Shown here: positions 3,725 through 51,452 of the stretch, one piece after another
Numbering within the stretch: the first letter of the stretch is position 1
Layout of the letters: every line of letters starts with the position of its first letter
From: Escherichia coli
GTDB lineage: Bacteria; Pseudomonadota; Gammaproteobacteria; Enterobacterales; Enterobacteriaceae
Length of the DNA stretch: 64,000 nucleotides
Direction: 5' to 3' (one strand)
NCBI RefSeq assembly: GCF_024502345.1
Contig: NZ_JALDNN010000001.1
Made by a program: the position numbers and the translations under genes
The notes under the pieces: generated by a model
The model's database searches: none
Told to the model about the DNA's origin: nothing
What the model saw: only the letters and a program-made list of their open reading frames with translations

Positions 3725-3738
3725 TATTCCACCTTGTA

Positions 3739-4567: not shown

Positions 4568-4669
4568 AGCGAATCGCTCCTGTTGTCAGGGGCGCAAATA
4601 TAGCAAATTCGTCGATACCGCGCCAACATATGGCTATAATCGCCGCCAGTATCAATTGAGGAGCATTCC

Positions 4670-5701
4670 ATGTCTGCATTTACCCCGGCAAGTGAAGTCT
4701 TGCTGCGTCACAGTGATGATTTCGAACAAAGCCGTATTCTGTTTGCCGGAGACTTACAGGATGACCTGCCCGCGCGTTTAGATACCGCGGCCAGCCGTGC
4801 TCATACCCAGCAATTCCACCACTGGCAGGTGTTAAGCCGCCAGATGGGGGATAACGCCCGTTTTAGTCTGGTCGCCACGGCGGATGACGTCGCAGATTGC
4901 GATACGCTGATTTACTACTGGCCGAAGAACAAACCGGAAGCCCAGTTCCAGTTGATGAATTTACTTTCTCTGCTGCCGGTGGGGACGGATATTTTTGTCG
5001 TTGGCGAGAACCGCAGCGGCGTGCGCAGCGCCGAGCAGATGCTGGCAGATTATGCGCCGTTGAATAAAGTCGACAGCGCTCGTCGCTGTGGACTCTATTT
5101 TGGTCGTCTGGAAAAACAGCCAGTATTTGATGCGGATAAATTCTGGGGCGAATACAGCGTCGATGGCCTGACGGTCAAAACGCTGCCTGGCGTGTTTAGC
5201 CGCGACGGTCTGGATGTCGGTAGCCAGTTGCTGCTCTCGACGTTAACTCCGCACACGAAAGGTAAAGTGCTGGATGTCGGCTGTGGCGCGGGTGTGCTTT
5301 CAGTTGCCTTTGCGCGCCATTCGCCGAAAATTCGTCTCACCTTGTGCGATGTCTCTGCCCCGGCGGTAGAAGCCAGCCGCGCAACACTTGCGGCCAACGG
5401 TGTTGAAGGTGAAATCTTTGCCAGCAACGTCTTTTCCGAGGTGAAAGGTCGTTTTGATATGATCATCTCCAACCCGCCGTTCCACGATGGGATGCAAACC
5501 AGCCTGGATGCGGCGCAAACGCTGATTCGCGGCGCGGTGCGTCATCTTAATAGCGGCGGCGAGCTGCGAATTGTAGCGAACGCCTTCCTGCCTTACCCGG
5601 ACGTGCTGGATGAGACATTTGGCTTCCATGAAGTTATCGCGCAAACCGGGCGCTTCAAGGTGTATCGCGCCATTATGACCCGCCAGGCGAAGAAAGGTTA
5701 A
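4670..5701 (+). CDS. rsmC: 16S rRNA (guanine1207-N2)-methyltransferase
   Basis: 343-aa ORF with SAM-binding [11 protein letters not shown] and NPPFH motifs. Confidence 0.9.
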
Positions 5702-5714
5702 TTATCTCGCCGAA

Positions 5715-5850
<136 letters not shown>

Positions 5851-5968
5851 TCCTGATGGACATTTTTCCAGCAATTACACATCAGGCGATAATTAACTAT
5901 TGACGAAAAGCTGAAAACCACTAGAATGCGCCTCCGTGGTAGCAATTCTTTTTAAGAATTGATGGTAT

Positions 5969-6055
5969 GCGAAGGTGGCGGAATTGGTAGACGCGCTAGC
6001 TTCAGGTGTTAGTGTCCTTACGGACGTGGGGGTTCAAGTCCCCCCCCTCGCACCA
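5969..6055 (+). tRNA. leuQ: tRNA-Leu (anticodon CAG)
   Basis: 87-nt sequence gcgaaggtggcggaattggtagacgcg...tcgcacca with CAG anticodon loop and long variable arm; first of three tandem copies. Confidence 0.9.
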
Positions 6056-6083
6056 AAAACCACGTTGATATTGCTCGCACTGG

Positions 6084-6170
6084 GCGAAGGTGGCGGAATT
6101 GGTAGACGCGCTAGCTTCAGGTGTTAGTGTTCTTACGGACGTGGGGGTTCAAGTCCCCCCCCTCGCACCA
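6084..6170 (+). tRNA. leuP: tRNA-Leu (anticodon CAG)
   Basis: Second tandem copy; differs from copies 1 and 3 by one base (tgttctt vs tgtcctt) in the variable region. Confidence 0.9.
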
Positions 6171-6204
6171 AACGAGGCGATATCAAAAAAAGTAAGATGA
6201 CTGT

Positions 6205-6291
6205 GCGAAGGTGGCGGAATTGGTAGACGCGCTAGCTTCAGGTGTTAGTGTCCTTACGGACGTGGGGGTTCAAGTCCCCCCCCTCGCACCA
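6205..6291 (+). tRNA. leuV: tRNA-Leu (anticodon CAG)
   Basis: Third tandem copy, identical to copy 1. Confidence 0.9.
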
Positions 6292-6329
6292 ATTATCTTT
6301 ACTTCCTTTCTTGTTTCTTCCCTGTTTTG

Positions 6330-6566
6330 TCATCCCTGATTCAAATTCATTATCATCAGCATGATGCCAGCAATAAGCGCCAGGCACGATGGTAGCAAAA
6401 TGTAATGCCGCAACTGTTTGTGATACAGCATCACCGGCGTCAATACTAATCCCATCAGAATTACAATCCGCCACTGATCCGGCGATAAATCCGCATACAT
6501 CAGCCCTGCAATCAGCAATCCCGGCAGCAACACTCCCCAGCCACTGCCCAGCGTACGTTGCAACAT
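6330..6566 (-). CDS. yjjZ: Small membrane protein YjjZ
   Basis: 78-aa hydrophobic product from the internal Met (MLQRTLGSGWGVLLPGLLIAG...) of the 115-aa track ORF, in the fhuF-leuV gap. Confidence 0.55.
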   Translation of the reverse strand: MLQRTLGSGWGVLLPGLLIAGLMYADLSPDQWRIVILMGLVLTPVMLYHKQLRHYILLPSCLALIAGIMLMIMNLNQG

Positions 6567-6706
6567 GGTTTCATCTCTTTCATTGATAATGATAACCAAT
6601 ATCATATGATAATTCTTATCATTTGCAAGCCAGAGAAATCCCTTGCTATCGGGTAAACCTATCGCTAGGATTAGCAATCATTATCATTTAGATTACTATC
6701 CCGATT

Positions 6707-7495
6707 ATGGCCTATCGTTCCGCACCGCTCTATGAAGATGTCATCTGGCGAACACATCTCCAGCCGCAGGATGCTGGGCTTGCACAAGCCGTACGGGCGA
6801 TGATCGCCAAACATCGTGAACATTTGCTCGAGTTTATCCGCCTGGATGAACCCGCTCCGCTTAACGCCATGACGCTGGCGCAATGGTCATCACCGAATGC
6901 GCTAAGTTCTCTACTGGCGGTCTATTCCGATCATATCTATCGCAACCAACCAACGATGATCCGCGAGAACAAACCGCTGATCTCACTATGGGCACAATGG
7001 TATATCGGCCTGATGGTGCCACCATTAATGCTGGCGCTACTGACGCAGGAAAAGGCATTAGATGTGTCGCCGGAACATTTCCATGCTGAGTTTCACGAAA
7101 CCGGACGCGTCGCCTGTTTCTGGGTCGATGTGTGTGAAGATAAAAACGCAACACCACATTCGCCGCAGCATCGAATGGAAACGTTAATCAGCCAGGCGCT
7201 GGTTCCGGTTGTGCAAGCACTAGAAGCGACCGGAGAGATCAACGGCAAACTTATCTGGAGTAATACCGGTTATTTGATCAACTGGTATCTCACTGAGATG
7301 AAGCAACTGCTCGGCGAGGCTACTGTTGAATCGCTGCGTCATGCCCTCTTTTTTGAGAAAACGCTCACGAACGGTGAAGATAATCCACTCTGGCGTACCG
7401 TGGTGCTACGCGACGGCCTGCTGGTGCGCCGCACTTGCTGCCAGCGTTATCGCTTACCGGATGTGCAGCAATGTGGCGATTGTACGCTGAAATGA
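6707..7495 (+). CDS. fhuF: Ferric-siderophore reductase FhuF
   Basis: 262-aa ORF ending in the 2Fe-2S Cys cluster CCQRYRLPDVQQCGDC. Confidence 0.9.
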   Translation: MAYRSAPLYEDVIWRTHLQPQDAGLAQAVRAMIAKHREHLLEFIRLDEPAPLNAMTLAQWSSPNALSSLLAVYSDHIYRNQPTMIRENKPLISLWAQWYIGLMVPPLMLALLTQEKALDVSPEHFHAEFHETGRVACFWVDVCEDKNATPHSPQHRMETLISQALVPVVQALEATGEINGKLIWSNTGYLINWYLTEMKQLLGEATVESLRHALFFEKTLTNGEDNPLWRTVVLRDGLLVRRTCCQRYRLPDVQQCGDCTLK

Positions 7496-7532
7496 AAGCA
7501 CTGCCGGGGAAGTAAACCCGGCATCATGCGGA

Positions 7533-8210
7533 TTAATAGGGATGCAACACATTACTTGTTTCGCAATGCCGCATACATAACAGAATATCTGCGGCCTCCA
7601 ACAACCCTGCGTCAGAACTGACGCCCAGTTTCGACATCACATTAAATTTATGTGCACGGATCGTTTTGATATTGCGTTTAAGCTGCTCGGCAATTTGTGT
7701 CATTGAGTAGCCACGCGACATAAAGCGCAATATTTCTCTCTCCGTCGGGCTTAACGTCCGGCTTTGGTTAATGTACCACTGATTGTTCAGTCGGTCGGTC
7801 GCCTGACGTACACCATTTAATGACAAAAAGAGTTCCTGATGAAAAATCTCCAGCGTTGACGCTTTACTTAATACACCGTCCAGCGGTGATGGCGACAATG
7901 AACCAATCAGCCGAGCTTCAATATCATCATCCGCAATAACTAAACGCCGGGTACGCGGAAACTTAATCGCCAGTTCAGTCAGGCAAGATAATCCCTCTCT
8001 GCGCTCACTTCTCATGGCAGAAAAAGAAAAAATGACCGCCGCAAACGAGATCCGCGACATGGCATCCTGAAATGACTCCTGACTGGTATAGGTATGGAGC
8101 TTATAAGGGTTGCCCGCAAACTTTCTGAATAAACTCTCAATACCGATACTACTCATGACGCATTTTTCTATGAGTGCGACATTTCTCTTCTTAATTCGGC
8201 AGTGTTCCAT
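7533..8210 (-). CDS. bglJ: LuxR-family transcriptional activator BglJ
   Basis: 225-aa ORF with C-terminal LuxR-type HTH ([25 protein letters not shown]); overlaps the yjjQ 3' end. Confidence 0.85.
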
Positions 8211-8371
8211 TCTGCGGCATCTCCATAAACAGAAGGCAAGTTAAGTTCTCTTGCACCCTGCGCGCTATTTATCCATGCATACATTTCAGCGTTGCTGTGA
8301 ATTGCCAGTCGACGCATCGCACTGTTTTTTTGGGCGCTGATAGTTTTATTACTTTTCTTAAGCAATGAAGC
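8168..8371 (-). pseudogene. yjjQ: yjjQ 3' fragment (C-terminal 67 codons), separated from the 5' part by IS30
   Basis: Encodes ...[65 protein letters not shown]. Together with 9593-10116 (minus the 2-bp duplication) it restores a 726-nt, 241-aa LuxR-family gene. Confidence 0.85.
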
Positions 8372-9592
8372 TGTAGATTCAATTGGTCAACGCAACAGTT
8401 ATGTGAAAACATGGGGTTGCGGAGGTTTTTTGAATGAGACGAACATTTACAGCAGAGGAAAAAGCCTCTGTTTTTGAACTATGGAAGAACGGAACAGGCT
8501 TCAGTGAAATAGCGAATATCCTGGGTTCAAAACCCGGAACGATCTTCACTATGTTAAGGGATACTGGCGGCATAAAACCCCATGAGCGTAAGCGGGCTGT
8601 AGCTCACCTGACACTGTCTGAGCGCGAGGAGATACGAGCTGGTTTGTCAGCCAAAATGAGCATTCGTGCGATAGCTACTGCGCTGAATCGCAGTCCTTCG
8701 ACGATCTCACGTGAAGTTCAGCGTAATCGGGGCAGACGCTATTACAAAGCTGTTGATGCTAATAACCGAGCCAACAGAATGGCGAAAAGGCCAAAACCGT
8801 GCTTACTGGATCAAAATTTACCATTGCGAAAGCTTGTTCTGGAAAAGCTGGAGATGAAATGGTCTCCAGAGCAAATATCAGGATGGTTAAGGCGAACAAA
8901 ACCACGTCAAAAAACGCTGCGAATATCACCTGAGACAATTTATAAAACGCTGTACTTTCGTAGCCGTGAAGCGCTACACCACCTGAATATACAGCATCTG
9001 CGACGGTCGCATAGCCTTCGCCATGGCAGGCGTCATACCCGCAAAGGCGAAAGAGGTACGATTAACATAGTGAACGGAACACCAATTCACGAACGTTCCC
9101 GAAATATCGATAACAGACGCTCTCTGGGGCATTGGGAGGGCGATTTAGTCTCAGGTACAAAAAACTCTCATATAGCCACACTTGTAGACCGAAAATCACG
9201 TTATACGATCATCCTTAGACTCAGGGGCAAAGATTCTGTCTCAGTAAATCAGGCTCTTACCGACAAATTCCTGAGTTTACCGTCAGAACTCAGAAAATCA
9301 CTGACATGGGACAGAGGAATGGAACTGGCCAGACATCTAGAATTTACTGTCAGCACCGGCGTTAAAGTTTACTTCTGCGATCCTCAGAGTCCTTGGCAGC
9401 GGGGAACAAATGAGAACACAAATGGGCTAATTCGGCAGTACTTTCCTAAAAAGACATGTCTTGCCCAATATACTCAACATGAACTAGATCTGGTTGCTGC
9501 TCAGCTAAACAACAGACCGAGAAAGACACTGAAGTTCAAAACACCGAAAGAGATAATTGAAAGGGGTGTTGCATTGACAGATTGAATCTACA
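8372..9592 (+). mobile_element. IS30: IS30 insertion sequence (1221 bp) with 2-bp GC target-site duplication
   Basis: Left end tgtagattcaattggtcaacgcaacag, right end ...attgaatctaca (inverted repeat); flanking GC at 8370-8371 and 9593-9594; single 383-aa transposase. Confidence 0.9.
8434..9585 (+). CDS. insI: IS30-family transposase
   Basis: 383-aa ORF with N-terminal HTH and DDE region (HWEGDLV...), recognised as the IS30 transposase. Confidence 0.9.
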
Positions 9593-10116
9593 GCTATCTG
9601 GTTGATGCCCCATCCTTTACCTAGTAGCCGCAGTACCTTGCGCTCTGAAAGAGTGAGAATGACGGAGCGATAGCTAAAATCATGAGTTTCAGTCATTGCC
9701 GGGGAGGTCAGCATGGTGCTGATACGCTCTGCGTGCGTATTGCCGGAACGTACGGTCTTGACCAGATTCTCAATGGGTTCAACATCAGACAATAACGTCG
9801 CCGTAGGGCACATGAGTAATTCTACTGCCTGGGAATACCAGGAGCGTGACACCATGAAAACCCAGTGAATTTCCCGATATTGTGAGATTAAAGAATAATA
9901 ATGTTCACAAACAGAACGTGGATCTTCACTTTCACCGGCTAAATCAGCAATGACTAATCCGGAACGACGTAATTGTAATAAGGTAAGGTTCTCCGCAGAG
10001 GCGCTGGATATTATTTCATATTCAGGGAAGTGAGTCCTCATGACCTCTTTTAACCCTGCTTGCATAACAGGTATTTTACTGATAACAATTCCATTTTTGC
10101 AGCATCCTGGCAACAT
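9593..10116 (-). pseudogene. yjjQ: yjjQ 5' fragment (N-terminal part), interrupted by IS30
   Basis: [25 protein letters not shown]...GWGINQIA then reads into the IS30 end. Confidence 0.85.
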
Positions 10117-10736
10117 ATTTCCTCCACATCCACTGTCTAAAAATTATGATGGTTTATTCAGGATATTCATTCCTTAAATGTTTCCAGCAAATTAATAGAT
10201 TAAGCGAATAAATTATCCTTAGCATTCACTTTCATATCAGCATACTCCTGCTGCACAACAACTCCACTGCATGTGTCAGAAGGTTAGCATCAAATGATAA
10301 CCTGGTGAAATAGCCTGGAGACATTTAAAATATCTACATTAAGTTGTTAGGGATACTTAATGAAAAACAGAAATCACATTCATTTAATTTATAATTAAAT
10401 GATATCCCTTCCCGCAGAATGCGGGAATCACACAATCAATATTTATTCAATAAAATCTGATGATTTTAACTTGTTAACACTAAAAAACGCGCCCAGCTAT
10501 CTATTATCCTGACCCGTAAAGGCTAAAACAATAAATTCATTATAGTGATAATATTCATGTGATAGTTTGTTTGCGGCGAGAGATAATTCGCTTTTTATCA
10601 CCGAGCTTGTCCCGATAACCAGGATTAATCAGCGCAATTTTGATCTTAACCTACCGCAAAACAACCGTGCTTCATGATACAAATGGATTCTCATTATCTG
10701 AACAATACGCAGCACGTCTATGACAAAGGGCGAGTT

Positions 10737-11507
10737 ATGCAAACTGAGCAACAGCGAGCCGTAACACGGCTTTGTATCCAGTGTGGATTATTTCTTTTGC
10801 AACATGGTGCGGAAAGCGCGTTGGTTGATGAGCTTTCCTCACGACTGGGTCGGGCGCTGGGAATGGACAGTGTCGAAAGTTCTATCTCTTCGAACGCCAT
10901 AGTGCTGACAACTATTAAAGATGGGCAATGCCTGACATCGACACGTAAAAATCACGATCGCGGCATTAATATGCATGTGGTGACTGAAGTCCAGCACATT
11001 GTGATTCTTGCGGAGCATCATCTGCTGGATTACAAAGGCGTAGAGAAACGATTTAGCCAAATTCAGCCATTACGTTACCCAAGATGGCTGGTAGCCTTAA
11101 TGGTTGGCCTTTCTTGCGCCTGTTTCTGTAAACTCAGTAACGGTGGCTGGGATGGTGCCGTCATCACCTTCTTTGCCAGTACGACCGCGATGTATATCCG
11201 CCAGCTGCTGGCACAACGTCATCTTCATCCACAGATCAACTTTTGCCTTACCGCTTTCGCCGCCACCACCATTTCCGGATTGCTTTTGCAACTCCCCACT
11301 TTCAGCAATACCCCCACCATTGCGATGGCCGCCAGCGTTCTGCTGCTGGTGCCGGGCTTTCCGTTGATTAATGCCGTCGCCGATATGTTTAAAGGCCACA
11401 TCAATACCGGACTGGCACGCTGGGCGATCGCCAGTCTGCTGACACTGGCTACCTGCGTCGGCGTAGTGATGGCACTGACGATTTGGGGTCTACGCGGATG
11501 GGTGTGA
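10737..11507 (+). CDS. yjjP: Inner-membrane protein YjjP (ThrE-family exporter-like, DUF1212)
   Basis: 256 aa from the internal Met [12 protein letters not shown]...; conserved position divergent from yjjQ. Confidence 0.8.
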
Positions 11508-11971
11508 TCGAATTTCTGTTAGCGTTGGCGCAGGATATGATCCTCGCCGCCATTCCTGCGGTCGGCTTTGCGATGGTGTTCAACGTTCCCGTGCGGGCGT
11601 TACGCTGGTGTGCGCTGCTTGGCTCGATAGGTCATGGTTCCCGAATGATCTTGATGACCAGCGGGTTGAATATTGAGTGGTCAACCTTTATGGCTTCGAT
11701 GCTGGTCGGTACCATTGGTATTCAATGGTCGCGCTGGTATCTGGCGCATCCGAAAGTGTTTACCGTGGCGGCCGTTATCCCTATGTTCCCGGGCATATCG
11801 GCTTATACCGCAATGATTTCGGCGGTAAAAATCAGCCAGTTAGGTTACAGCGAACCGTTGATGATTACCCTGTTAACCAACTTTCTTACAGCTTCATCGA
11901 TTGTTGGTGCGTTATCCATCGGTCTTTCCATTCCTGGATTATGGTTGTACCGCAAGCGCCCTCGCGTATAA
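11498..11971 (+). CDS. yjjB: Inner-membrane protein YjjB (DUF3815)
   Basis: 157-aa hydrophobic ORF overlapping the yjjP stop. Confidence 0.8.
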
Positions 11972-12077
11972 AATTGCCTCGCTTAAGCACACGGATGAGA
12001 GACAGCCTCCTCTCCTCCGTGTGTTACTATAAAAGTTATCTCCCTTCTCGTTCATCGTTCCATATTTGAGAAACAGT

Positions 12078-12617
12078 ATGTCTTCCAGAGTTTTGACCCC
12101 GGACGTCGTTGGTATTGACGCCCTGGTACACGATCACCAAACCGTTCTGGCAAAAGCTGAAGGCGGTGTGGTTGCCGTATTTGCTAACAATGCCCCGGCG
12201 TTTTATGCCGTCACGCCTGCACGCCTGGCTGAACTGCTGGCGCTGGAAGAAAAGCTGGCGCGTCCGGGAAGCGATGTCGATCTGGACGATCAACTCTATC
12301 AGGAACCGCAAGCCGCTCCCGTTGCTGTACCCATGGGGAAATTCGCCATGTATCCGGACTGGCAACCCGATGCCGACTTTATCCGCCTGGCGGCGCTATG
12401 GGGCGTGGCGCTAAGAGAGCCGGTGACCACCGAAGAACTGGCCTCATTCATTGCCTACTGGCAGGCGGAAGGTAAAGTCTTTCACCATGTGCAGTGGCAA
12501 CAAAAACTGGCGCGCAGCCTGCAAATCGGTCGTGCCAGCAACGGCGGACTGCCGAAACGAGATGTGAATACGGTCAGCGAACCTGACAGCCAAATTCCAC
12601 CAGGATTCAGAGGGTAA
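12078..12617 (+). CDS. dnaT: Primosomal protein DnaT
   Basis: 179 aa from [17 protein letters not shown]...; directly precedes dnaC. Confidence 0.9.
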
Positions 12618-12619
12618 CG

Positions 12620-13357
12620 ATGAAAAACGTTGGCGACCTGATGCAACGCCTGCAAAAAATGATGCCTGCCCATATCAAACCTGCATTCAAAACGGGTGAA
12701 GAGCTACTGGCCTGGCAGAAAGAACAAGGGGCGATCCGCTCCGCCGCTCTCGAACGTGAAAATCGGGCGATGAAAATGCAGCGCACCTTTAACCGCTCCG
12801 GTATTCGTCCACTGCATCAGAACTGCTCCTTTGAGAACTATCGCGTTGAGTGTGAAGGGCAGATGAATGCGTTAAGCAAAGCGCGCCAGTATGTTGAAGA
12901 ATTTGACGGCAACATCGCCAGCTTCATCTTTTCTGGCAAGCCAGGAACCGGTAAAAACCATCTGGCGGCGGCAATCTGCAACGAGCTGCTGCTACGCGGT
13001 AAATCCGTATTGATCATCACCGTGGCCGATATTATGTCGGCGATGAAAGATACCTTCAGGAATAGCGGAACCAGCGAAGAACAACTGCTTAACGATCTGA
13101 GCAACGTTGATCTGCTGGTGATCGATGAGATCGGCGTGCAGACCGAATCGAAATACGAAAAAGTGATCATCAACCAGATCGTCGATCGCCGCTCTTCTTC
13201 CAAACGCCCAACCGGGATGCTGACCAACAGTAATATGGAAGAGATGACCAAGTTGCTGGGCGAACGCGTGATGGACCGTATGCGCCTGGGTAACAGTTTG
13301 TGGGTGATCTTCAACTGGGATAGCTACCGTAGCCGTGTAACAGGTAAAGAGTATTAA
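12620..13357 (+). CDS. dnaC: Helicase loader DnaC
   Basis: 245-aa ORF with Walker A GKPGTGKNHLAAA and Walker B LLVIDEIG. Confidence 0.9.
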   Translation: MKNVGDLMQRLQKMMPAHIKPAFKTGEELLAWQKEQGAIRSAALERENRAMKMQRTFNRSGIRPLHQNCSFENYRVECEGQMNALSKARQYVEEFDGNIASFIFSGKPGTGKNHLAAAICNELLLRGKSVLIITVADIMSAMKDTFRNSGTSEEQLLNDLSNVDLLVIDEIGVQTESKYEKVIINQIVDRRSSSKRPTGMLTNSNMEEMTKLLGERVMDRMRLGNSLWVIFNWDSYRSRVTGKEY

Positions 13358-13402
13358 TCCCCGTTTCTGGCGGTATACTGCGACACAATTCCACCTTGAG
13401 TA

Positions 13403-13900
13403 ATGATGATGAAAACTGTTAAACATCTTCTGTGCTGTGCCATTGCCGCCAGCGCATTAATTTCCACCGGGGTGCATGCTGCGTCCTGGAAAGATGCGCT
13501 CTCCAGCGCCGCCAGCGAACTTGGCAACCAAAACAGCACGACACAGGAAGGCGGTTGGTCGCTCGCGTCATTAACTAACTTGCTTAGCAGCGGAAACCAG
13601 GCCTTAAGCGCAGATAACATGAACAATGCCGCAGGCATTCTGCAATACTGCGCGAAGCAAAAGCTGGCGTCGGTAACCGATGCCGAAAACATCAAGAACC
13701 AGGTGCTGGAAAAGCTGGGCCTGAACAGTGAAGAGCAAAAAGAAGACACCAACTATCTGGACGGTATTCAGGGTTTGCTGAAAACCAAAGATGGTCAGCA
13801 ACTCAATCTGGATAACATCGGAACGACTCCGCTGGCAGAAAAGGTGAAAACCAAAGCCTGCGATCTGGTGTTAAAGCAGGGGCTGAACTTCATTTCCTGA
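13403..13900 (+). CDS. yjjA: Periplasmic protein YjjA (DUF2501), signal peptide
   Basis: 165-aa ORF with N-terminal signal sequence (LLCCAIAASALISTGVHA). Confidence 0.8.
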   Translation: MMMKTVKHLLCCAIAASALISTGVHAASWKDALSSAASELGNQNSTTQEGGWSLASLTNLLSSGNQALSADNMNNAAGILQYCAKQKLASVTDAENIKNQVLEKLGLNSEEQKEDTNYLDGIQGLLKTKDGQQLNLDNIGTTPLAEKVKTKACDLVLKQGLNFIS

Positions 13901-16445: not shown

Positions 16446-16457
16446 TTCCTGACTGAT

Positions 16458-16486
16458 GTGTAGGTCGCATAGGGTGCGACCTACAC
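16458..16486. repeat. 12-bp perfect inverted repeat (gtgtaggtcgca / tgcgacctacac, 5-nt spacer) between convergent opgB and lgoD
   Basis: Read directly; a strong hairpin but no adjacent T run on either strand. Confidence 0.5.
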
Positions 16487-16582
16487 ACCTTCTCCGGCTT
16501 ACAACACATTATTAAGAAACCAAAAAAACAGCGCCCAACACTTCCCCGGACGCTGCATGGCAACTTTAATAATCTCGCCTTA

Positions 16583-43111: not shown

Positions 43112-44385
43112 TGGCAGGGTTAAATAAATATCAGGCGTATCCGGAGTATAGGGATTCTGGGGTGGAGTGGTTGGGGGAGATTCCTGCTCATTGGGAAACG
43201 TTACAGCATAAATACGTCGCATATTATACTAAGGGCAAAAATCCTTCTTTTTTGCTCGATACCCCAACAAAGAACACCCTACCTTATCTTTCTATGGATT
43301 GTTTAAGAAATAACTCCATAGATAAATATGCTATAGTATCTAATGATATTCGTATTGCATTAGAGGGACAACCACTTATTATTTGGGATGGTTCTAATGC
43401 TGGGGAATTTGTCAAAGGCCGAAAAGGTATTTTATCCTCAACGATGGCCTCTGCAACGCTTAATTATCCTTTGCACATGCAATATTACTGGTATTTATGC
43501 ACTGCAATTGAATCTGAAATGCGTAAACATGCAAATGGTATGGGTATCCCTCATGTAAATGGAGAAGAATTAAAGAACATTCATCTAAGTATCCCTTCAA
43601 TAACCGAACAAAAAAGCATCGCTGGTTTTCTTGAATTTGAAACAACGAAAATTTCGAACCTTATAGAAAAACAACAACAACTAATTGAATTACTAAAAGA
43701 AAAACGTCAGGTCGTGATTAGCCATGCGGTCACAAAAGGGCTAAATCCTGACGTGCCGATGAAAGATTCTGGGGTTAAGTGGTTGGGGGAAGTTCCAAAA
43801 CACTGGCACATATGCAAGTTAAAATGGTTTGCTAATTTGAAAAGTGGTGATTTTATAACCAGCAATTCAATAGAACCAGAAGGAAACTATCCTGTATATG
43901 GTGGAAATGGATTAAGAGGATATTATTCTTATTTTACACACAATGGTGAATATGTTCTTATTGGTAGACAAGGTGCTCTTTGCGGAAATATAAATTACGC
44001 AATTGGAAAGTTTTGGGCTTCAGAACATGCTGTTGTTGTCACCCCAAACGAAAGAGCTGTTACAATATGGTTAGGAGAATTATTAAGAATAATGAACTTA
44101 AACCAATATTCAGTTTCTGCTGCACAACCGGGGCTTGCGGTTGAAAGAATTACTGATTTATATATTCCAATCCCACCATATCAAGAGCAAATAAATATCG
44201 GAACTTATATATCTAAATATATTTCTCTAGATAAAAAATTGATTGAGCATAGTACAGATAATATTGAACTCCTCAAAGAACGCCGCACCGCCCTTATCTC
44301 CGCCGCCGTCACCGGCAAAATTGATCTACGCAACTGGACCGCGCCCATCCCCGAAGCGGAAACACCCACGGAGGCCAGCGCATGA
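43111..44385 (+). CDS. hsdS: Type I restriction-modification specificity subunit
   Basis: 424-aa ORF with internal duplication (RDSGVEWLGEIPAHWE / KDSGVKWLGEVPKHWH; LIELLKEKRQVVIS / NIELLKERRTALIS) and two AT-rich target-recognition domains; start overlaps the hsdM stop. Confidence 0.85.
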   Translation: MAGLNKYQAYPEYRDSGVEWLGEIPAHWETLQHKYVAYYTKGKNPSFLLDTPTKNTLPYLSMDCLRNNSIDKYAIVSNDIRIALEGQPLIIWDGSNAGEFVKGRKGILSSTMASATLNYPLHMQYYWYLCTAIESEMRKHANGMGIPHVNGEELKNIHLSIPSITEQKSIAGFLEFETTKISNLIEKQQQLIELLKEKRQVVISHAVTKGLNPDVPMKDSGVKWLGEVPKHWHICKLKWFANLKSGDFITSNSIEPEGNYPVYGGNGLRGYYSYFTHNGEYVLIGRQGALCGNINYAIGKFWASEHAVVVTPNERAVTIWLGELLRIMNLNQYSVSAAQPGLAVERITDLYIPIPPYQEQINIGTYISKYISLDKKLIEHSTDNIELLKERRTALISAAVTGKIDLRNWTAPIPEAETPTEASA

Positions 44386-47300
44386 GCCACGACATTACAA
44401 AAGAGGTTAACCTGCAAAACGACATCATCGCGCAGATGGTGGAAAAAGGCTGGATTGTCGGCAAAGGTGACGGCTACGACCGGGAACGTGCGCTATACGC
44501 ACAGGATACCTTAAACTTCGTGCAGACCACTCAAACGCAGGAGTGGGAGAAATTCGCCCGCGTTTACCCTAACGACCCAGAGCGCCATTTCCTCGACGCG
44601 CTGGTCGCGCAGCTTAAAAAAGCCGACAGCAACGCCACCGATATCCAGTCGCGCACCTGGGGTACGCTCGGCGTACTTCGCCACGGTCTGAAAATCCGCA
44701 ATGCCCGTTTTTCGCTGTGCCAGTTTAAACCGGAACACAACCTCAACCCGGAAACGCTGGCGCGCTATCAGCAAAATATCTGCCGTATCGTGCCGGAACT
44801 GGTCTACAGCCCTTATGCCTCAAATAGCGTCTTTGCAGAAACGGGCGTGAAAGCCAAAAAATGGCGCATCGACCTTGTGCTGTTTATCAACGGCCTGCCA
44901 ATTGCCACGCTGGAGCTGAAATCCGAATTTAAACAGGCGGTGCAGAACGCCATTGCGCAGTACAAAAAGACCCGCCTGCCGAAAGATCCCGCTACCAATA
45001 AACCTGAACCGCTGCTGGCCTTTAAGCGCGGGGCGCTGGTGCATTTTGCCGTCAGCCAGTATGACGTCTTTATGACCACCAAACTCGCAGGTGACAGCAC
45101 CTTCTTCCTGCCGTTTAACAAAGGCACCAAAGAAGGCGGTGCAGGCAATGAGATCCCCGAAGATACTCGCCGCTACGCCACCGATTATCTGTGGAATGAA
45201 GTGCTGCTGCCGGACAACTTATTAAAAATCCTCGCCAGTTTTGTCCATTTGCAGATTGAAGAAAAAGAGGAGTGGAACGGGCTGAAAGCGAAGAAAGAGA
45301 GCCTGATTTTCCCGCGCTATCACCAGTGGGATGTGGTCAACAAACTGCTGGAGGCTGCGACGGTCGAAGACACCGGCCATAAATACCTGATTCAGCACAG
45401 CGCAGGTTCCGGAAAGTCGAACTCCATTGCCTGGACCGCCCACCAGCTCTCTCGTCTGTACGACGCAAACGGGGAAAAACAGTTCCACTCCGTTATCGTG
45501 GTGACAGACCGCACGGTGCTGGACGACCAGCTTCAGGACACCATCTGGCAGTTCGAACATGCCGACGGCGTGGTCGGGCGCATCAATAACAGAGAGGGCG
45601 ACGGCTCTAAATCGGAAAAGCTCGCCAACGCGCTGGAAAACTCGCAACCGATTATTATTGTCACCATCCAGACGTTCCCGTTCGTATTGAAAGCTATCGA
45701 AAACAGTGTCAGCCTGAAGCAGCGTAAATACGCGGTAATCGCCGATGAAGCGCACTCCTCGCAGAGCGGTTCTACCGCCCGTCAGCTCAAAGAAGTGCTG
45801 ATGAGCGAAGAGATGGATGATGACGTGGTACTGTCGTCAGAAGATATTCTGGATGCGACCATCGCCGCACGGAAAGGTAGCAGTAACCTGAACTACTATG
45901 CCTTTACCGCCACGCCCAAATCCAAAACCCTGGAACTTTTTGGTCGCCGTCCACGTCCCGATGAACCGGCGTCAAAAACCAATAAACCTGAGGCCTTCCA
46001 CGTCTACTCCATGCGCCAGGCAATCGAAGAAGGCTTTATCCTCGACGTGCTGAAAAACTACACCAACTACAAAGTGGCGTATCAGTTGCTGCAAAAGCTG
46101 GAAGATGAAGACCGCGAAGTCGATAGCAAACGGGCGAAGGTAAAACTCAATCAGTGGGTGACACTGCACGACCACAATATCTCGCAGAAGGTGAAGGTGA
46201 TTGTGGAGCACTTCCGCAAACATGTGATGCATCTGCTTGGCGGCCAGGCTAAAGCGATGGTGGTCACCAGTTCACGCAAAGCCGCCGTGCGCTATAAGCT
46301 GGCATTTGATAAATACATTAGCGAGAACAATTACCAGAAAATCAGCGCGATGGTGGCGTTTTCCGGGGAAGTTGAATTCCGGGAAGGCGACCCTAACAGC
46401 CTGGCATTGTTAAACCAGAAATTTACTGAAATAAACATGAACCCCGGCCTGAAAGGACGGGATATGCGCAAAGCCTTCGACAGCGACGATTACCAAGTCA
46501 TGCTGGTCGCCAATAAATTCCAGACCGGTTTTGACCAGCCGAAGCTGTGCGCGATGTACGTGGATAAAGCCCTCGGCGGCGTCGAGTGTGTGCAGACGCT
46601 CTCCCGCCTGAACCGCACCTATCCGGGCAAAGCGGAATCTGGCACTTTTGTCCTCGATTTTTATAATGATCCGGACGAGATCCTCGGCGCATTCCAGCCC
46701 TATTTCCAGACGGCGGAACTGACCGATGTCAGCGATCCGCAGCAGGTATTCGATCTGTTTGAAAAACTGCGCGCCACGCAGATTTTTCAGTGGCATGAAG
46801 TCGAGCAGTTCTGCGAGGCATACTTCATCAAAAATAAATCGAATGCGGCGATCAGTAATATTTGCAAACCGGCGGTCGAACGCTGGAAAAAGCGTTATCT
46901 GATGGCGATAGACGCCTATTTGACCGCCAAAGAGATGTTCGAGCGCACCAAAAAAACGGGCGATACAGTATTAATCACCAATGCGGAAAACAGTTTTAAA
47001 GCCTGTAAGCAGGAGAAAGATCGTCTGGAAATATTCAAAAAAGATCTCGGCAGCTTTGTTCGTTTTTATGAATTTATGTCGCAGATCGTTGAATACGATG
47101 ACAAGGATCTGGAAAAGCTAAGCCTGTTTGCTCGTCATCTGCGTCCGCTGCTGCATGAGCAACGTCTGGAAGATGATGAAATTGATCTCAGTAATGTGGA
47201 GATGAGTCACTATCGTTTATCGAAAATCCATGAGCAAGATTTACGCTTACAGGAAGAAACGCCTGACTATACGCTGGATGCAAGTAATAATATTGGTACG

Positions 47301-47645
47301 GCAAAAGCGAAAGATAAAAAAGAGGAGTTTTTATCTCAGGTGCTTTCTCGGATGAATGAATTATTCATTAGTGACCATTTGACCGACAAAGATATGATCA
47401 GCAATGCTTTTTCGGTGTATAACAAAATAACTGAAAATGAAAATGTTATGACACAAATTAAAAACAATCCCCCAGAACAAGCGATTCTTGGTGATTTCCT
47501 CCAGGCAGTTGATAATGCTGTAATGGACAGTAATGACGCTCGGCAAGAATTCATGTTGCAATATTTATCCGATCCAGCTCGGGCAAAGGGCTTTGCTTAT
47601 CTGATGTTTGATATGCTAACGGGGAAAATTGCTTTGCCAACATAA
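44382..47645 (+). CDS. hsdR: Type I restriction endonuclease subunit (SF2 helicase/nuclease)
   Basis: 1087-aa ORF with helicase motif I SAGSGKSNS and motif II IADEAHSSQ; ATGA overlap with hsdS. Confidence 0.85.
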   Translation: MSHDITKEVNLQNDIIAQMVEKGWIVGKGDGYDRERALYAQDTLNFVQTTQTQEWEKFARVYPNDPERHFLDALVAQLKKADSNATDIQSRTWGTLGVLRHGLKIRNARFSLCQFKPEHNLNPETLARYQQNICRIVPELVYSPYASNSVFAETGVKAKKWRIDLVLFINGLPIATLELKSEFKQAVQNAIAQYKKTRLPKDPATNKPEPLLAFKRGALVHFAVSQYDVFMTTKLAGDSTFFLPFNKGTKEGGAGNEIPEDTRRYATDYLWNEVLLPDNLLKILASFVHLQIEEKEEWNGLKAKKESLIFPRYHQWDVVNKLLEAATVEDTGHKYLIQHSAGSGKSNSIAWTAHQLSRLYDANGEKQFHSVIVVTDRTVLDDQLQDTIWQFEHADGVVGRINNREGDGSKSEKLANALENSQPIIIVTIQTFPFVLKAIENSVSLKQRKYAVIADEAHSSQSGSTARQLKEVLMSEEMDDDVVLSSEDILDATIAARKGSSNLNYYAFTATPKSKTLELFGRRPRPDEPASKTNKPEAFHVYSMRQAIEEGFILDVLKNYTNYKVAYQLLQKLEDEDREVDSKRAKVKLNQWVTLHDHNISQKVKVIVEHFRKHVMHLLGGQAKAMVVTSSRKAAVRYKLAFDKYISENNYQKISAMVAFSGEVEFREGDPNSLALLNQKFTEINMNPGLKGRDMRKAFDSDDYQVMLVANKFQTGFDQPKLCAMYVDKALGGVECVQTLSRLNRTYPGKAESGTFVLDFYNDPDEILGAFQPYFQTAELTDVSDPQQVFDLFEKLRATQIFQWHEVEQFCEAYFIKNKSNAAISNICKPAVERWKKRYLMAIDAYLTAKEMFERTKKTGDTVLITNAENSFKACKQEKDRLEIFKKDLGSFVRFYEFMSQIVEYDDKDLEKLSLFARHLRPLLHEQRLEDDEIDLSNVEMSHYRLSKIHEQDLRLQEETPDYTLDASNNIGTAKAKDKKEEFLSQVLSRMNELFISDHLTDKDMISNAFSVYNKITENENVMTQIKNNPPEQAILGDFLQAVDNAVMDSNDARQEFMLQYLSDPARAKGFAYLMFDMLTGKIALPT

Positions 47646-47658
47646 AAATACGTTAATA

Positions 47659-47684
47659 GCCGGGGTCGCACTTTCTACCCCGGC
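47659..47684 (+). terminator. Hairpin (gccggggt / accccggc) just after hsdR
   Basis: 8-bp GC-rich stem 14 nt after the hsdR stop; weak T run. Confidence 0.3.
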
Positions 47685-47710
47685 CATATTATTTACAATA
47701 AGGAATAGCT

Positions 47711-48424
47711 ATGCTGAAGATGATTAAAGATTTTAAATTCAAAAAATACATTAAAAAATTACGTGAAGAAGGTTTGTTATTTTATGTTTCTTTCGGGTTT
47801 ATATTTACATTGTTAATGGAAGTTGATGATCGATTACCGTACTATCTTCAACAAGACTTCTTTTTTTATACACTTATAGGATTTATGCCAATCAATATAT
47901 TCTTTGTTTTGATTTGCACATATATATTTTTCAATGCCGTCCATGCGCTTATTTCACCATATAAATTTCAAAGAATTGGTGAGAAATTCCTCTCTGAACT
48001 TGATAAAAGAACACAACAAATTGGCTTTATTATTTCATTCATATGTTTTGGCATGACTTTGTTTTGTGCACTGGTGTGGTTGCTGTTTTTTGAAATGAAT
48101 ACTGAAAGTTACTACGCAAAATATACATTAAATTTTTTAGCTGCTTTTATCATTATGATTATAATTTCTTCAGTAGTTAATCCAGTAATGAACAGAACAT
48201 TCCAAAAAATGAAGGAATCGGACTCACATGGAAATTCAAAAATAATTCTTATAATTATAATCATTATATTGTTGCTATTATTACCAATTGCGTGCATTAT
48301 CAATAAAAATAAAACAATTGAAATCAATATTAAGAAAGAAACCTATCAGCAAATAAAAGAAAAAACAAAGATAAAACCAGAAGATTATATCAAAAAATTG
48401 ATTACTGATATTAAATTCAACTAA
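47711..48424 (+). CDS. Hypothetical AT-rich integral membrane protein (about five TM helices), no recognisable family
   Basis: 237-aa ORF with about 28 % GC beside roughly 50 % GC neighbours; hydrophobic helices such as FFFYTLIGFMPINIFFVLICTYIFF and IILIIIIIILLLLLPIACII; Lys-rich termini; aagga SD 7 nt upstream. Confidence 0.5.
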   Translation: MLKMIKDFKFKKYIKKLREEGLLFYVSFGFIFTLLMEVDDRLPYYLQQDFFFYTLIGFMPINIFFVLICTYIFFNAVHALISPYKFQRIGEKFLSELDKRTQQIGFIISFICFGMTLFCALVWLLFFEMNTESYYAKYTLNFLAAFIIMIIISSVVNPVMNRTFQKMKESDSHGNSKIILIIIIIILLLLLPIACIINKNKTIEINIKKETYQQIKEKTKIKPEDYIKKLITDIKFN

Positions 48425-48428
48425 TATC

Positions 48429-48462
48429 TATATGTACCCTGGTTTCTTCCAGGGTACATATA
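48429..48462. terminator. 14-bp perfect inverted repeat (tatatgtaccctgg-tttctt-ccagggtacatata) immediately after the membrane ORF
   Basis: Read directly, 4 nt after the stop codon; strong stem, no clear T run. Confidence 0.45.
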
Positions 48463-48499
48463 AAAAGTTAATATCCTGATTTATTCTCAACATCCTCTA

Positions 48500-48664
48500 T
48501 TACTCCACATCCTCCCTGCTTAACCCAATATCCCTCAACCGTTCATCACTCATCTGCTGTAACACTCGTCGGGTCTGCATTTGCCGCCGCCAACGCCTCA
48601 CCGCATGCCAGAGTTGCACAAGTCTGATAAACGGCGTTTTGGCTTTGTTTTCGTGAAATTCCAT
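48500..48664 (-). CDS. yjiS: Small protein YjiS (DUF1127)
   Basis: 54-aa ORF below the 60-aa track cutoff, found by translation: MEFHENKAKTPFIRLVQLWHAVRRWRRQMQTRRVLQQMSDERLRDIGLSREDVE; aggagg SD upstream. Confidence 0.75.
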   Translation of the reverse strand: MEFHENKAKTPFIRLVQLWHAVRRWRRQMQTRRVLQQMSDERLRDIGLSREDVE

Positions 48665-48840
48665 CTGCTGCCTCCTCATCTTTCAGAGGCTTCATCATCC
48701 GTCTTCTGGCAGTTCACAATACAGATGCAAATATTAGTTTTATTTAACATACAGACAGGTTAAAACAGCATCTGCATCCGGTTTTTTAGCCTCATCTGTA
48801 CCGGTTTTTCTCTCTGTATGGTCCAAATAAGGAATACAGC

Positions 48841-50253
48841 ATGACGCGTTATCAACATCTGGCAACTCTGCTTGCCGAGCGGATTGAGCAAGGGCTGTAT
48901 CGTCACGGGGAGAAATTGCCGTTGGTGCGCAGCTTAAGTCAGGAGCACGGCGTCAGCATCAGCACCGTGCAGCAGGCGTACCAGACGCTGGAGACGATGA
49001 AGCTCATCACTCCGCAGCCGCGTTCGGGTTATTTTGTCGCACAACGTAAAGCCCAGCCGCCTGTACCGCCGATGACGCGTCCGGTGCAGCGCCCGGTGGA
49101 AATTACCCAGTGGGATCAGGTGCTGGATATGCTGGAGGCGCATAGCGACAATTCCATTGTTCCGTTAAGCAAAAGCACGCCGGATGTCGAAACGCCCAGC
49201 CTGAAACCGCTGTGGCGTGAGCTAAGCCGGGTGGTGCAGCATAATCTGCAAACCGTTCTCGGTTATGACTTGTTAGCCGGTCAGCGAGTGTTGCGGGAGC
49301 AGATTGCCCGCCTGATGCTCGACAGCGGCTCGGTGGTCACCGCCGATGACATCATCATCACCAGCGGCTGCCATAACTCGATGTCGCTGGCGTTAATGGC
49401 GGTGTGTAAACCGGGCGATATTGTCGCGGTCGAATCTCCCTGTTATTACGGTTCGATGCAGATGCTGCGAGGCATGGGCGTGAAAGTGATTGAAATCCCA
49501 ACCGATCCAGAAACTGGCATCAGCGTTGAAGCACTGGAACTGGCGCTGGAACAGTGGCCGATTAAAGGCATCATTCTGGTGCCAAACTGTAATAATCCGC
49601 TGGGATTTATTATGCCGGACGCACGCAAACGGGCCGTTCTCTCTCTCGCTCAGCGTCATGATATTGTGATTTTTGAAGATGATGTCTACGGCGAACTGGC
49701 AACGGAGTATCCGCGCCCGCGGACCATCCATTCATGGGATATCGACGGGCGAGTGCTGTTGTGCAGCTCGTTCAGTAAAAGTATTGCTCCAGGCCTGCGC
49801 GTGGGTTGGGTCGCACCGGGGCGTTATCACGATAAACTGATGCATATGAAATACGCCATCAGCAGCTTTAATGTGCCGTCCACGCAAATGGCGGCGGCAA
49901 CGTTTGTGTTGGAAGGCCACTATCATCGCCATATCCGGCGGATGCGGCAGACTTATCAGCGCAATCTGGCGCTTTATACCTGCTGGATACGGGAATATTT
50001 TCCCTGCGAAATCTGTATTACGCGCCCGAAAGGCGGATTTTTACTGTGGATCGAATTGCCTGAACAGGTCGATATGGTCTGCGTCGCGCGGCAGCTGTAC
50101 CGCATGAAAATCCAGGTGGCGGCAGGCTCGATTTTCTCGGCTTCCGGCAAATACCGTAATTGTCTGCGCATCAACTGCGCTTTGCCGCTCAGCGAAACCT
50201 ATCGCGAAGCACTAAAGCAAATTGGCGATGCCGTGTATCGGGCAATGGAATAA
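48841..50253 (+). CDS. yjiR: MocR-like regulator (GntR HTH fused to a PLP aminotransferase-like domain)
   Basis: 470-aa ORF; N-terminal GntR HTH, C-terminal class-I aminotransferase fold with SFSKSIAPGLR (PLP-Lys). Confidence 0.85.
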   Translation: MTRYQHLATLLAERIEQGLYRHGEKLPLVRSLSQEHGVSISTVQQAYQTLETMKLITPQPRSGYFVAQRKAQPPVPPMTRPVQRPVEITQWDQVLDMLEAHSDNSIVPLSKSTPDVETPSLKPLWRELSRVVQHNLQTVLGYDLLAGQRVLREQIARLMLDSGSVVTADDIIITSGCHNSMSLALMAVCKPGDIVAVESPCYYGSMQMLRGMGVKVIEIPTDPETGISVEALELALEQWPIKGIILVPNCNNPLGFIMPDARKRAVLSLAQRHDIVIFEDDVYGELATEYPRPRTIHSWDIDGRVLLCSSFSKSIAPGLRVGWVAPGRYHDKLMHMKYAISSFNVPSTQMAAATFVLEGHYHRHIRRMRQTYQRNLALYTCWIREYFPCEICITRPKGGFLLWIELPEQVDMVCVARQLYRMKIQVAAGSIFSASGKYRNCLRINCALPLSETYREALKQIGDAVYRAME

Positions 50254-50379
50254 ATTCGAATTAGTGCCGAGGCCCCTGATTTACTCTCACGAATAACCTG
50301 TGACTCGTTTTATCTTTATAGCGACATCGCCACGTTCCGGCATGGCTTAGGCAAAGTGTGCTTCGTTCATGCCAGATGC

Positions 50380-50475
50380 CATGTGAACGCCTTACCAGGT
50401 CTACAAAATATTAAAAGTTCAATATATTTAATGGATTATGTAGACCTGATAAGCGTAGCGCATCAGGCTGCTTTG
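50380..50475. repeat. REP-like palindromic element between yjiR and rpnD
   Basis: ccaggtctacaaaa...gtagacctgataagcgtagcgcatcaggc. Confidence 0.45.
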
Positions 50476-50495
50476 CGTTTGTCATCAGCCTCTGA

Positions 50496-51452
50496 TTAGT
50501 ACTCGATCCATGGTTCGCGCTTGCTTTCAGGCAAGGGCTGATCTAATGCCTGCATTTGCTCTGCCGAAAGTCCGGTATATCGTTGTATCCATTCAGGATC
50601 GGCCCCATTCTGCAACAACAATCGGAGGAGGCTCCGTTCCCCTTCTACTTTCCCTTCTTTCCTCCCCCTCTCCCTTCCCAACAGCCATCCATCATTATGA
50701 ATTCGCTCTGCAATTGTCATTATTCGCTCCCTGTGGTGTGGCATTCGCCTGGTAAGTTCGCTGATAAACGCCTTAAAACGCGCTTCATCGCCAGTCAGTA
50801 AAATGTAATTTAACAGCGCAGTTATCTGGCTGTCATTAGCACACTCTGTAACCAGTAATACTACCAGTTGGTCAATAAGCCCCATCAGATCGCGCTGGCG
50901 AATATGCTTTTGGATCAACTCCAACAGGGCGACTCTGCGATGCTGCACAATCTCGTCGTCTGGCACGACAGTGACATCCACCAGCGGGAACGCTGCGGTA
51001 TAAAGTTTCCGTGCGGTAGTCGGGGCGGCAAATTCGTCCAGCCAGCACAGGGACCAGGGGTAAGGACTACGGCTACCGTGATAAAACAGCATCGGGATAA
51101 CCAGCGGTAGCGGCCGGCGTTTATCATGCTCGATATGGCGCTGCATCACCGCCATGGAATATCGCATCAGGCGAAACGCCATATGAATATCCTCACGGCT
51201 CTGATGTTCAATCACCACATAGATATAGCCATCACCTTCACGGGTCTTTACCGACCACAGAATATCGGAGTGTAGCGCCCGCAATTTTTCATCGACAAAG
51301 CTGGCTGACTCCAGTTTTAAGCTGTCGAGATCGCACAGTTCACGTAAATCTTTGGGTAAGTGGATCTCCATAAAATCCCGCGCGGTGTCAGGGTGCGTGA
51401 GAAAGGACTTAAATAATGCGTCATGCGGCGTGCTGGTCGTGAAGTTTGTCAT
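50496..51452 (-). CDS. rpnD: Rpn-family recombination-promoting nuclease (YhgA-like, PD-(D/E)XK)
   Basis: 318-aa uninterrupted ORF with the Rpn/YhgA-like N-terminal region ([10 protein letters not shown]). Confidence 0.75.

Follow-up and report, generated by a model that had tools for sequence, protein, structure and literature searches.

By gene order and homology, a gene encoding a predicted five-helix inner-membrane protein has a fixed place in the enterobacterial immigration control region (ICR): it lies at the yjiS-proximal end, where type I restriction cassettes close with it. The current work concerns the member of this family found in a stretch of 64,000 nucleotides of Escherichia coli DNA (assembly GCF_024502345.1, contig NZ_JALDNN010000001.1; this whole stretch is called the window below). 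It is an open reading frame (ORF) of 237 amino acids (aa) downstream of hsdR, followed by a perfect hairpin and then by yjiS on the opposite strand. The ORF is a genuine gene under selection, and its product may work at the membrane as a defence factor separate from the restriction enzyme, a reading that is offered tentatively. The ICR is a textbook defence hotspot in enteric bacteria, yet no study has dealt with the gene that ends it in Salmonella LT2 (STM4522) and in about 2% of E. coli. The sequence is already present in databases as 'hypothetical' or 'inner membrane protein', and its architecture and its position behind three hsd families are undescribed. Coordinates are collected in Table 1.

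Table 1. Features at the end of the type I cassette in the window
Feature	Position	Strand	Remarks
hsdR, 1087 aa, upstream neighbour of the ORF	44382..47645	+	PGAP annotation 'type I restriction endonuclease subunit R'
Guanine-cytosine (GC)-rich stem-loop CCGGGGT...ACCCCGG in the 65-nucleotide (nt) hsdR-ORF spacer, then a partly T-rich stretch	47659..47684	+	spacer fold z = -2.6
Shine-Dalgarno sequence AAGGAA	47700-47705	+	5 nt 5' of ATG; unchanged in 12/12 alleles read
237-aa ORF, predicted five-helix inner-membrane protein	47711..48424	+	ATG start, TAA stop; AlphaFold2 (AF2) predicted local distance difference test (pLDDT) 73
Conserved strand-helix-helix tail, ribbon-helix-helix (RHH)-like, codons 198-237, NKNKTIEINIKKETYQQIKEKTKIKPEDYIKKLITDIKFN	48302..48421	+	2/40 sites vary among 13 alleles
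Perfect hairpin, 14 bp, 6-nt loop, between the convergent ORF and yjiS	48429..48462		terminator-like
yjiS (DUF1127), framework gene bounding the ICR	48500..48664	-	from annotation; present in 3735/5426 genomes

Gene reality, distribution and relatives

The frame listing gives the ORF as the sole long frame between 47711 and 48424 on the plus strand. Its GC content is 26.1% (29, 22 and 27% at the three codon positions), against a window mean of 50.5%, and the probability of 237 stop-free codons at this composition is about 5e-10. The original prediction, made from the sequence alone, had described a 237-aa, five-helix protein after hsdR with lysine-rich ends and its own Shine-Dalgarno sequence, and these traits were recovered: Kyte-Doolittle analysis finds five hydrophobic segments (residues ~21-37, 52-78, 104-127, 138-157 and 178-197), AF2 also models five helices, the protein carries 8 K/R residues in its N-terminal 20 aa and 11 in its C-terminal 40 aa, and AAGGAA precedes the start codon. 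The GC content had been put at about 28%, which was right as to AT-richness and slightly above the actual value.

The census sample consisted of 5426 complete E. coli genomes. The ORF is present in 114 of them, in one copy each, always chromosomal, with 90-100% DNA identity and always after a window-type hsdR. This type of hsdR was found in 116 genomes, and the two without the ORF are those in which hsdR is 80% identical. Among 12 Escherichia copies read, 11 are intact and one (strain A20) is frameshifted; GmrSD and hsdS are frameshifted in that genome too. The pooled dN/dS of nine alleles (Nei-Gojobori) is 0.32 for the ORF, 0.08 for hsdR, 0.09 for hsdM and 0.19 for yjiS. The 13 distinct alleles differ at 52 sites, which are unevenly spread: 1 of 20 positions varies at the N-terminus, 2 of 24 in transmembrane helix (TM) 3, 2 of 40 in the C-terminal tail and 13 of 20 in TM5. 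The gene is under purifying selection, strongest at its soluble ends, and a spurious ORF in AT-rich DNA is ruled out by the stop-codon statistics together with dN/dS. Conservation, an absence of which had been named as grounds for abandoning the candidate, is evident from the 114 genomes, in nearly all of which the gene is intact, and from this ratio.

The surrounding region of the window is the E. coli ICR, defined as the variable stretch from yjiA to yjiS (PMC2481252). Genes follow one another there in the order btsT, yjiX, yjiA, a BrnA-family gene, Fic, GmrSD, hsdM, hsdS, hsdR, the ORF, yjiS (minus strand) and yjiR. All ten E. coli loci fetched by a match to the ORF have the order GmrSD-hsdM-hsdS-hsdR-ORF-yjiS, with Fic beyond GmrSD wherever the flank extended that far, and the near-identical strain L001 has the same gene order. 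The window and NZ_CP104123 share 100% identity over 901 bases around the ORF and differ at 26 positions over the 13-kb island region.

The family appears, from the searches, to be very small and mostly enterobacterial. No close relative lies outside Escherichia. When 1.84 billion cluster representatives were searched exhaustively with phmmer, only 14 proteins were returned, among them the full-length relatives P0009 (38-40% identity), P0010 (42%) and P0012 (30-32%) and the distant relatives P0013, P0014, P0016 and P0018 (23-29%). Two profile searches of a set of 5.8 billion proteins added only a subfamily in Enterobacter and Pantoea (~22% identity). At E <= 1e-3, Foldseek against AFDB50 recovered the ORF family alone, in E. 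coli, Salmonella and Citrobacter farmeri and more weakly in Pseudomonas prosekii and Serratia rubidaea. A profile search of genome contigs, for which two peptide patterns were usable, gave two loci only and is no census. In tblastn searches the ORF had no match on plasmids, and among phages it matched only a misfiled Salmonella chromosome contig; blastn with STM4522 DNA had no match in E. coli.

The earlier statement that the protein has no recognisable family agrees with the lack of a family match in PADLOC, Pfam, NCBIfam, PHROGs and PDB. NCBIfam held nothing meaningful for it, no PDB family matched, and no structural match to a characterised membrane-transporter or channel fold was found. 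Pfam matches to DUF898, MscS_TM and Cation_ATPase_C (~1e-4; the ORF and nine members) were rejected as composition artefacts of hydrophobic low-complexity sequence. The identical protein, WP_000916454.1, is named 'hypothetical protein' in one genome (L019, 10001-10714) and 'MFS transporter' in two other RefSeq genomes, including L025 (7501-8214). Identity as a major facilitator superfamily (MFS) transporter was ruled out, for 237 aa and five helices compare with ~12 TM helices and >=400 aa, and MFS_1 matched at only E = 0.014 in 1 of 9 members. The label disagrees with both size and helix count; no housekeeping transporter family was matched that would tell against the candidate.

The relatives place the family at the same chromosomal position behind other restriction genes. 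In Salmonella the order is mrr, hsdR, hsdM, hsdS, symE, STM4522 and yjiS (minus strand), and STM4522 is ~37% identical to the ORF. P0012 follows hsdRMS-symE in the Salmonella order without yjiS, and P0010 stands after hsdS-symE. The metagenomic P0009 begins 32 nt past a gene whose last 44 residues form the C-terminus of an HsdR from a different, third family (PADLOC REase_I 8.5e-13, Pfam T1RH-like_C 2.7e-6); on its 3' side is an aldehyde dehydrogenase gene (succinic-semialdehyde dehydrogenase), the same as in Salmonella. Three hsd families in two gene orders thus each end with a member of the ORF family beside ICR framework genes. The claim that the gene travels with a type I cassette in a defence island is borne out by 114 of the 116 genomes with hsdR, and since diverged relatives also follow hsd genes of two other families, the association is older and wider than the window alone could reveal.

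STM4522 (SL4453, 'inner membrane protein') and the Citrobacter and Escherichia relatives share with the ORF full-length homology of 30-40% and the plan of five helices plus tail. STM4522 is likewise the last ICR gene, convergent with yjiS and AT-rich (28.6% GC). It differs in standing behind hsdRMS-symE (EcoKI-like family) instead of hsdMSR, and in having its own upstream terminator and an unrelated downstream hairpin. In S. enterica subsp. diarizonae (L028, 5698-8700) the ICR holds no hsd genes; it contains an intact symE together with genes for an AraC-type regulator and a LysE/RhtB-type exporter, and only a multiply frameshifted pseudogene is left of the homologue of the ORF. The Vibrio relative P0016 (L007-L010, ~4800-10700) lies in an island with a Multi_ubiq/ThiF-E1/BubE operon, a Peptidase_M78 and helix-turn-helix pair, a VspR-like gene and several ORFs without a family.

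The composition of the ORF had been called foreign. Its low GC relative to the window stands; its foreignness does not. Where the host is enterobacterial (52-55% GC), members of the family have 26-34%; the Vibrio member has 36% and its host 39%. Because AT-richness (26-36% GC) is common to all members, the positional counterpart in Salmonella among them, low GC characterises the family and does not point to recent import. Moreover, the AT-rich tract extends into the 3' end of hsdR: in the GC profile its onset is at ~46800, inside hsdR rather than at the ORF.

Architecture and possible function

AF2, run on a 15-sequence alignment, placed helices at residues 10-38, 49-80, 87-125, 133-169 and 174-196 (the pLDDT of Table 1 is the mean; predicted template-modelling score, pTM, 0.60). 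The family alignment is co-linear throughout, with a basic N-terminus, an LPYYLQQ motif past helix 1, the five helices and a tail of ~40 residues. The conserved RHH-like tail was missed by the original prediction and is new here. It shows a strand (TIEINI), a helix (KETYQQIKEKT), a KP turn and a second helix (EDYIKKLI), a strand-helix-helix pattern like that of RHH proteins such as Arc, CopG and NikA and the tandem TraY and AvtR, the likeness being not significant for the E. coli sequence. When tails alone were compared with Pfam, distant members matched the RHH clan above other families, all at sub-threshold level (NikA-like 7.1e-5, RHH_7 2e-3, RHH_1 2.8e-3, FitA-like 0.024, CopG_antitoxin 0.08).

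In the AF2 monomer the tail consists of a coil (197-208) and two helices. RHH domains fold only as dimers, and two tails were therefore fused by a flexible linker for AF2. The artificial tandem was modelled as beta-alpha-alpha twice (E3-11/H/H and E58-66/H/H); for the folded parts block pLDDT was mostly 81-88, and pTM was 0.64. The assignment of the tail as an RHH-like dimerisation module is regarded as moderately supported. In 15 of 15 members K/R residues abound at the N-terminus and in loops 2 and 4 but not in loops 1 and 3. Five helices and this family-wide charge pattern place the tail outside the cytoplasm, and the prediction is therefore a periplasmic tail; net positive charge is lacking from tails outside Escherichia. 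The RHH proteins known to date are soluble and bind DNA in the cytoplasm, whereas the module of the ORF is fused to five TM helices and is predicted to be periplasmic.

The favoured reading can be set out as follows. The basic N-terminus would lie in the cytoplasm and the five helices in the inner membrane, and the 40-residue tail, on the periplasmic side, would probably pair two subunits into a dimer. The product would then be a stand-alone accessory of the defence island that acts at the membrane and not on DNA inside the cell, either by keeping phage or DNA from entering or by arresting growth as an effector. Such a role is plausible by association only, and among the readings considered it is the one we would put first, with clear hesitation. 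Phage-exclusion and abortive membrane proteins would, by analogy, be the most likely functional class. Lambda RexB, P22 SieA/SieB and T4 Imm, which act against incoming phage, are like the ORF product small multi-pass inner-membrane proteins without an enzymatic domain. There is no sequence or fold relationship between them and the ORF (the Pfam match to SieB, E = 1e-3 in 1 of 9 members, is typical of hydrophobic low-complexity matching), and unlike the ORF they are encoded by prophages and lack an RHH-like tail; RexB, moreover, depends on RexA.

If the defence role is true, a membrane-level layer would be added to a locus thought to act only on intracellular DNA, and the gene would be a new single-gene system with the undescribed architecture of five TM helices plus an RHH-like tail. 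A more specific version of the defence role, in which a dimeric five-helix anchor holds a periplasmic RHH fold that intercepts incoming phage or conjugative DNA, or the proteins conducting it, before restriction, is a long shot. Such a new single-gene immigration control factor at the membrane would explain why diverged alleles stay at the end of three type I cassettes.

The original prediction had also drawn a parallel with PrrC. PrrC acts in the cytoplasm as an anticodon nuclease, contains an ABC-ATPase domain and is restrained by the EcoprrI enzyme. Like the back-up defence genes of the PrrC/RloC type, the ORF is an extra gene travelling with hsd inside a restriction locus, and in position the analogy is sound. 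It goes no further: the ORF product has no nuclease or ATPase domain (Pfam, NCBIfam), is a membrane protein, lacks homology to PrrC and is not tied to one hsd family.

Several results weigh against a defence role or against the protein model on which it is built. No family in PADLOC-DB 2.0 matched the ORF protein at E <= 1, no phage protein family matched it in PHROGs, and it has no sensor or enzymatic domain. The Enterobacter/Pantoea subfamily sits in a stable metabolic, non-defence neighbourhood beside mmuP/mmuM, and in the Enterobacter loci its gene overlaps a GFA-domain gene. The abortive-infection, membrane-disrupting or addiction role proposed earlier is not supported, given the lack of PADLOC matches and the context of this subfamily. 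All ICR contexts may derive from one ancestral placement, which would reduce the association to one or two independent events. No consensus promoter was found by a promoter scan of the 65-nt spacer before the ORF. As to the tail, no RHH model matched the E. coli sequence in the Pfam scan, and a sequence search with a tail profile against PDB gave nothing significant and no RHH protein. Foldseek of the tandem model against PDB had the RHH-fold proteins TraY and AvtR, both natural tandem-RHH proteins, as top matches at a non-significant E of 0.27-1.9. The net charge of +5 of the E. coli tail weighs against a periplasmic location. Finally, no paper on STM4522 / SL1344_4453 was found in the literature, and papers on the ICR and GmrSD do not mention the gene. 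Its sole mention is as SL4453, a flanking gene with altered expression via polar effects in a yjiS complementation strain (PMC11707872); SL4453 is probably the Salmonella orthologue STM4522.

The relation to restriction belongs with these results. The ORF is absent from about 98% of E. coli, most of which carry other hsd alleles, and is therefore dispensable for restriction. One of the two copies with the 80%-identical hsdR was examined (L029, E. coli GDSC2227PM, 3304-13541). It occupies another chromosomal site, with ParB-family and IS1 genes next to it, and its hsdMSR is followed by an AAA ATPase and McrC pair (McrBC-like) and not by the ORF. Presence in homologous hsd loci, proposed earlier as a check, was found in 114 of 116 genomes and not at this copy. 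The family and hsd do not co-occur strictly, since L029 has hsd without the ORF and the ORF family stands also behind two other hsd families. The ORF product is neither a subunit of the type I restriction enzyme nor needed by it.

In a second explanation the gene encodes a small inner-membrane protein with a non-defence role, e.g. envelope or solute handling; it happens to lie just inside the recombination boundary of the ICR and is swapped, and diverges, with the hsd cassettes without taking part in their work. In favour, the family is tied to a position next to yjiS or the succinic-semialdehyde dehydrogenase gene and not to one hsd family; the gene is absent where the same hsd family sits elsewhere (L029); a subfamily lives among metabolic genes; constraint is relaxed (dN/dS 0.32); and no defence family matches. 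Such a role fits less well with the sporadic presence in 2% of E. coli, with an identity of only 30-40% between genera at the same position and with one relative in a separate Vibrio island. The homologue has also decayed where hsd is missing (S. diarizonae), and the other variable genes identified in the region are of restriction, Fic or antitoxin type. On balance this explanation is regarded as rather unlikely, though it is a serious one. If the gene is not a defence gene, it would provide a clean example of alleles diverging by hitch-hiking with balanced restriction cassettes, and a warning against taking low GC as recent import.

The properties of the tail could also be read as those of a membrane-tethered regulator. 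A cytoplasmic tail would bind DNA as a dimer while the membrane domain responds to a signal from the envelope or keeps the repressor sequestered, and the gene would control itself or other genes of the cassette. The RHH-clan matches and the beta-alpha-alpha model agree with this, no other part of the protein is as conserved as the tail, and the tail's net charge of +5 in E. coli fits DNA binding and a cytoplasmic location. Against it, the five-helix layout and, in 15 of 15 members, a strongly basic N-terminus and basic loops 2 and 4 put the tail outside the cell, and the tails of most relatives lack net positive charge. For the E. coli protein the RHH evidence stays below threshold, and no operator-like repeat was noticed in the 65-nt spacer across alleles, where no dedicated repeat search was run. 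Regulation of this kind is considered improbable.

Least credible beside the interception model is a membrane toxin or addiction module that depolarises the membrane on over-production or on loss of a labile partner, stabilising the cassette or killing infected cells: SymE (in relatives), Fic and BrnA-type genes do occur in the same region, and so hydrophobic and AT-rich a gene is probably silenced by H-NS, by analogy with enterobacterial gene silencing in general, but neither an antisense RNA nor a gene for a cognate antitoxin was found (Rfam is blank, and no conserved small ORF was noticed), 11 of 12 Escherichia copies are intact with no adjacent partner gene identified, and 237 aa with five helices are unlike known small membrane toxins.

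The hairpin and the spacer

A 14-bp perfect inverted repeat had been reported 4 nt past the stop codon of the ORF, and it is present as described, with arms TATATGTACCCTGG and CCAGGGTACATATA at 48429-48442 and 48449-48462. It is the longest perfect hairpin-type repeat in the window. Its folding energy of -23.4 kcal/mol (z = -6.1) was equalled by none of 200 shuffles. Homology with the core of ~3600 other genomes restarts at ~48502, exactly the yjiS stop, and because it restarts only there the hairpin belongs to the variable cassette. In other alleles the upper stem carries 1-3 mismatches without a clean compensatory change, and the lower 9 bp are invariant. Covariation support was ruled out, as the changes are mostly single-sided mismatches.

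The hairpin that had been singled out is not a special element: it varies between alleles, the hairpins of relatives are unrelated to it, and its flank better fits termination of yjiS on the minus strand. Hairpins of unrelated sequence occur directly past the stops of the ORF relatives in Salmonella, P0012 and P0009. The plus-strand flank is AAAAAGUU, which is not a U-tract, and a scan for the terminator consensus accepted the hairpin on the minus strand only, 3' of yjiS, with the tail UAUUAGUUGA. The end of a mobile element or a repetitive extragenic palindromic (REP) element was ruled out; there is one hairpin per genome, with this cassette only, and no second copy. The hairpin is most readily explained as an ordinary terminator lying between two convergent genes, the ORF and yjiS, and not as a specialised element. 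Two other perfect hairpins were recorded in the window, one with 12-bp arms TATCCGGCCTAC / GTAGGCCGGATA, REP-like, at 35853-35888 just past btsT, and one with 13-bp arms at 16457-16487. Rfam (E <= 1) over 36000-50500 gave a spurious snoRNA match only.

The stem-loop in the spacer between hsdR and the ORF is probably a leaky terminator of hsdR. Its arms are kept in 11 of the 12 alleles read, and strain A20 has one change in the 3' arm. The ORF would be expressed either by read-through or from an unrecognised promoter. In Salmonella the spacer between symE and STM4522 (L016, 11891-11965) contains a canonical terminator, in which GCTGGCAA...TTGCCAGC runs into TTTAATT, as well as a perfect TATAAT ~25 nt upstream of the start codon. 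Judging from these motifs, STM4522, in contrast to the gene in E. coli, is probably transcribed from a promoter of its own.

Neighbouring genes of the island

PADLOC identified the neighbours of the ORF, with strong matches, as type I M, S and R subunits (MTase_I, Specificity_I, REase_I) and a GmrSD-like type IV enzyme (Orf5/mREase_IV). The REase_I match spans only residues 6-798 of HsdR. The last ~290 residues (codons ~800-1087, ~46780-47645) are AT-rich, with GC falling from 0.49 to 0.36, and residues 1005-1082 match PDC-S15 at 5.5e-7. The 80%-identical hsdR of L029 departs from that of the window over about the last 390 nt. In sequence, the C-terminal part of HsdR looks like a swapped module. 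HsdM (40766-43111, plus strand) is unusually long, 781-784 aa, and the MTase_I model of PADLOC spans its full length. Its NCBIfam score is 92 bits against an hsdM cut-off of 243, and HsdR is also under its own NCBIfam cut-off; by these scores the hsd family of the window appears divergent.

The GmrSD-like gene (38565-40481, minus strand) has a 1-bp deletion at ~38578 compared with L001, giving 638 aa instead of 699 and an altered C-terminal end. The deletion is either a sequencing error or the mark of an inactivated type IV enzyme; GmrSD copies are split or frameshifted in L020, L022 and L024 as well. At the yjiA side, a BrnA-family antitoxin gene (37164-37466, minus strand) adjoins a Fic-family gene (37605-38339, minus strand), and no BrnT toxin is annotated. 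PADLOC had zero matches for either gene of the window, and the two may be a non-canonical Fic/antitoxin pair.

In four loci (L017, L019, L024 and L025; ~8630-9850 or 11130-12350) yjiR is a ~300-bp pseudogene abutting an Rpn-family nuclease gene, and mdtM is missing. This arrangement suggests an Rpn-associated deletion just outside the ICR in these strains.

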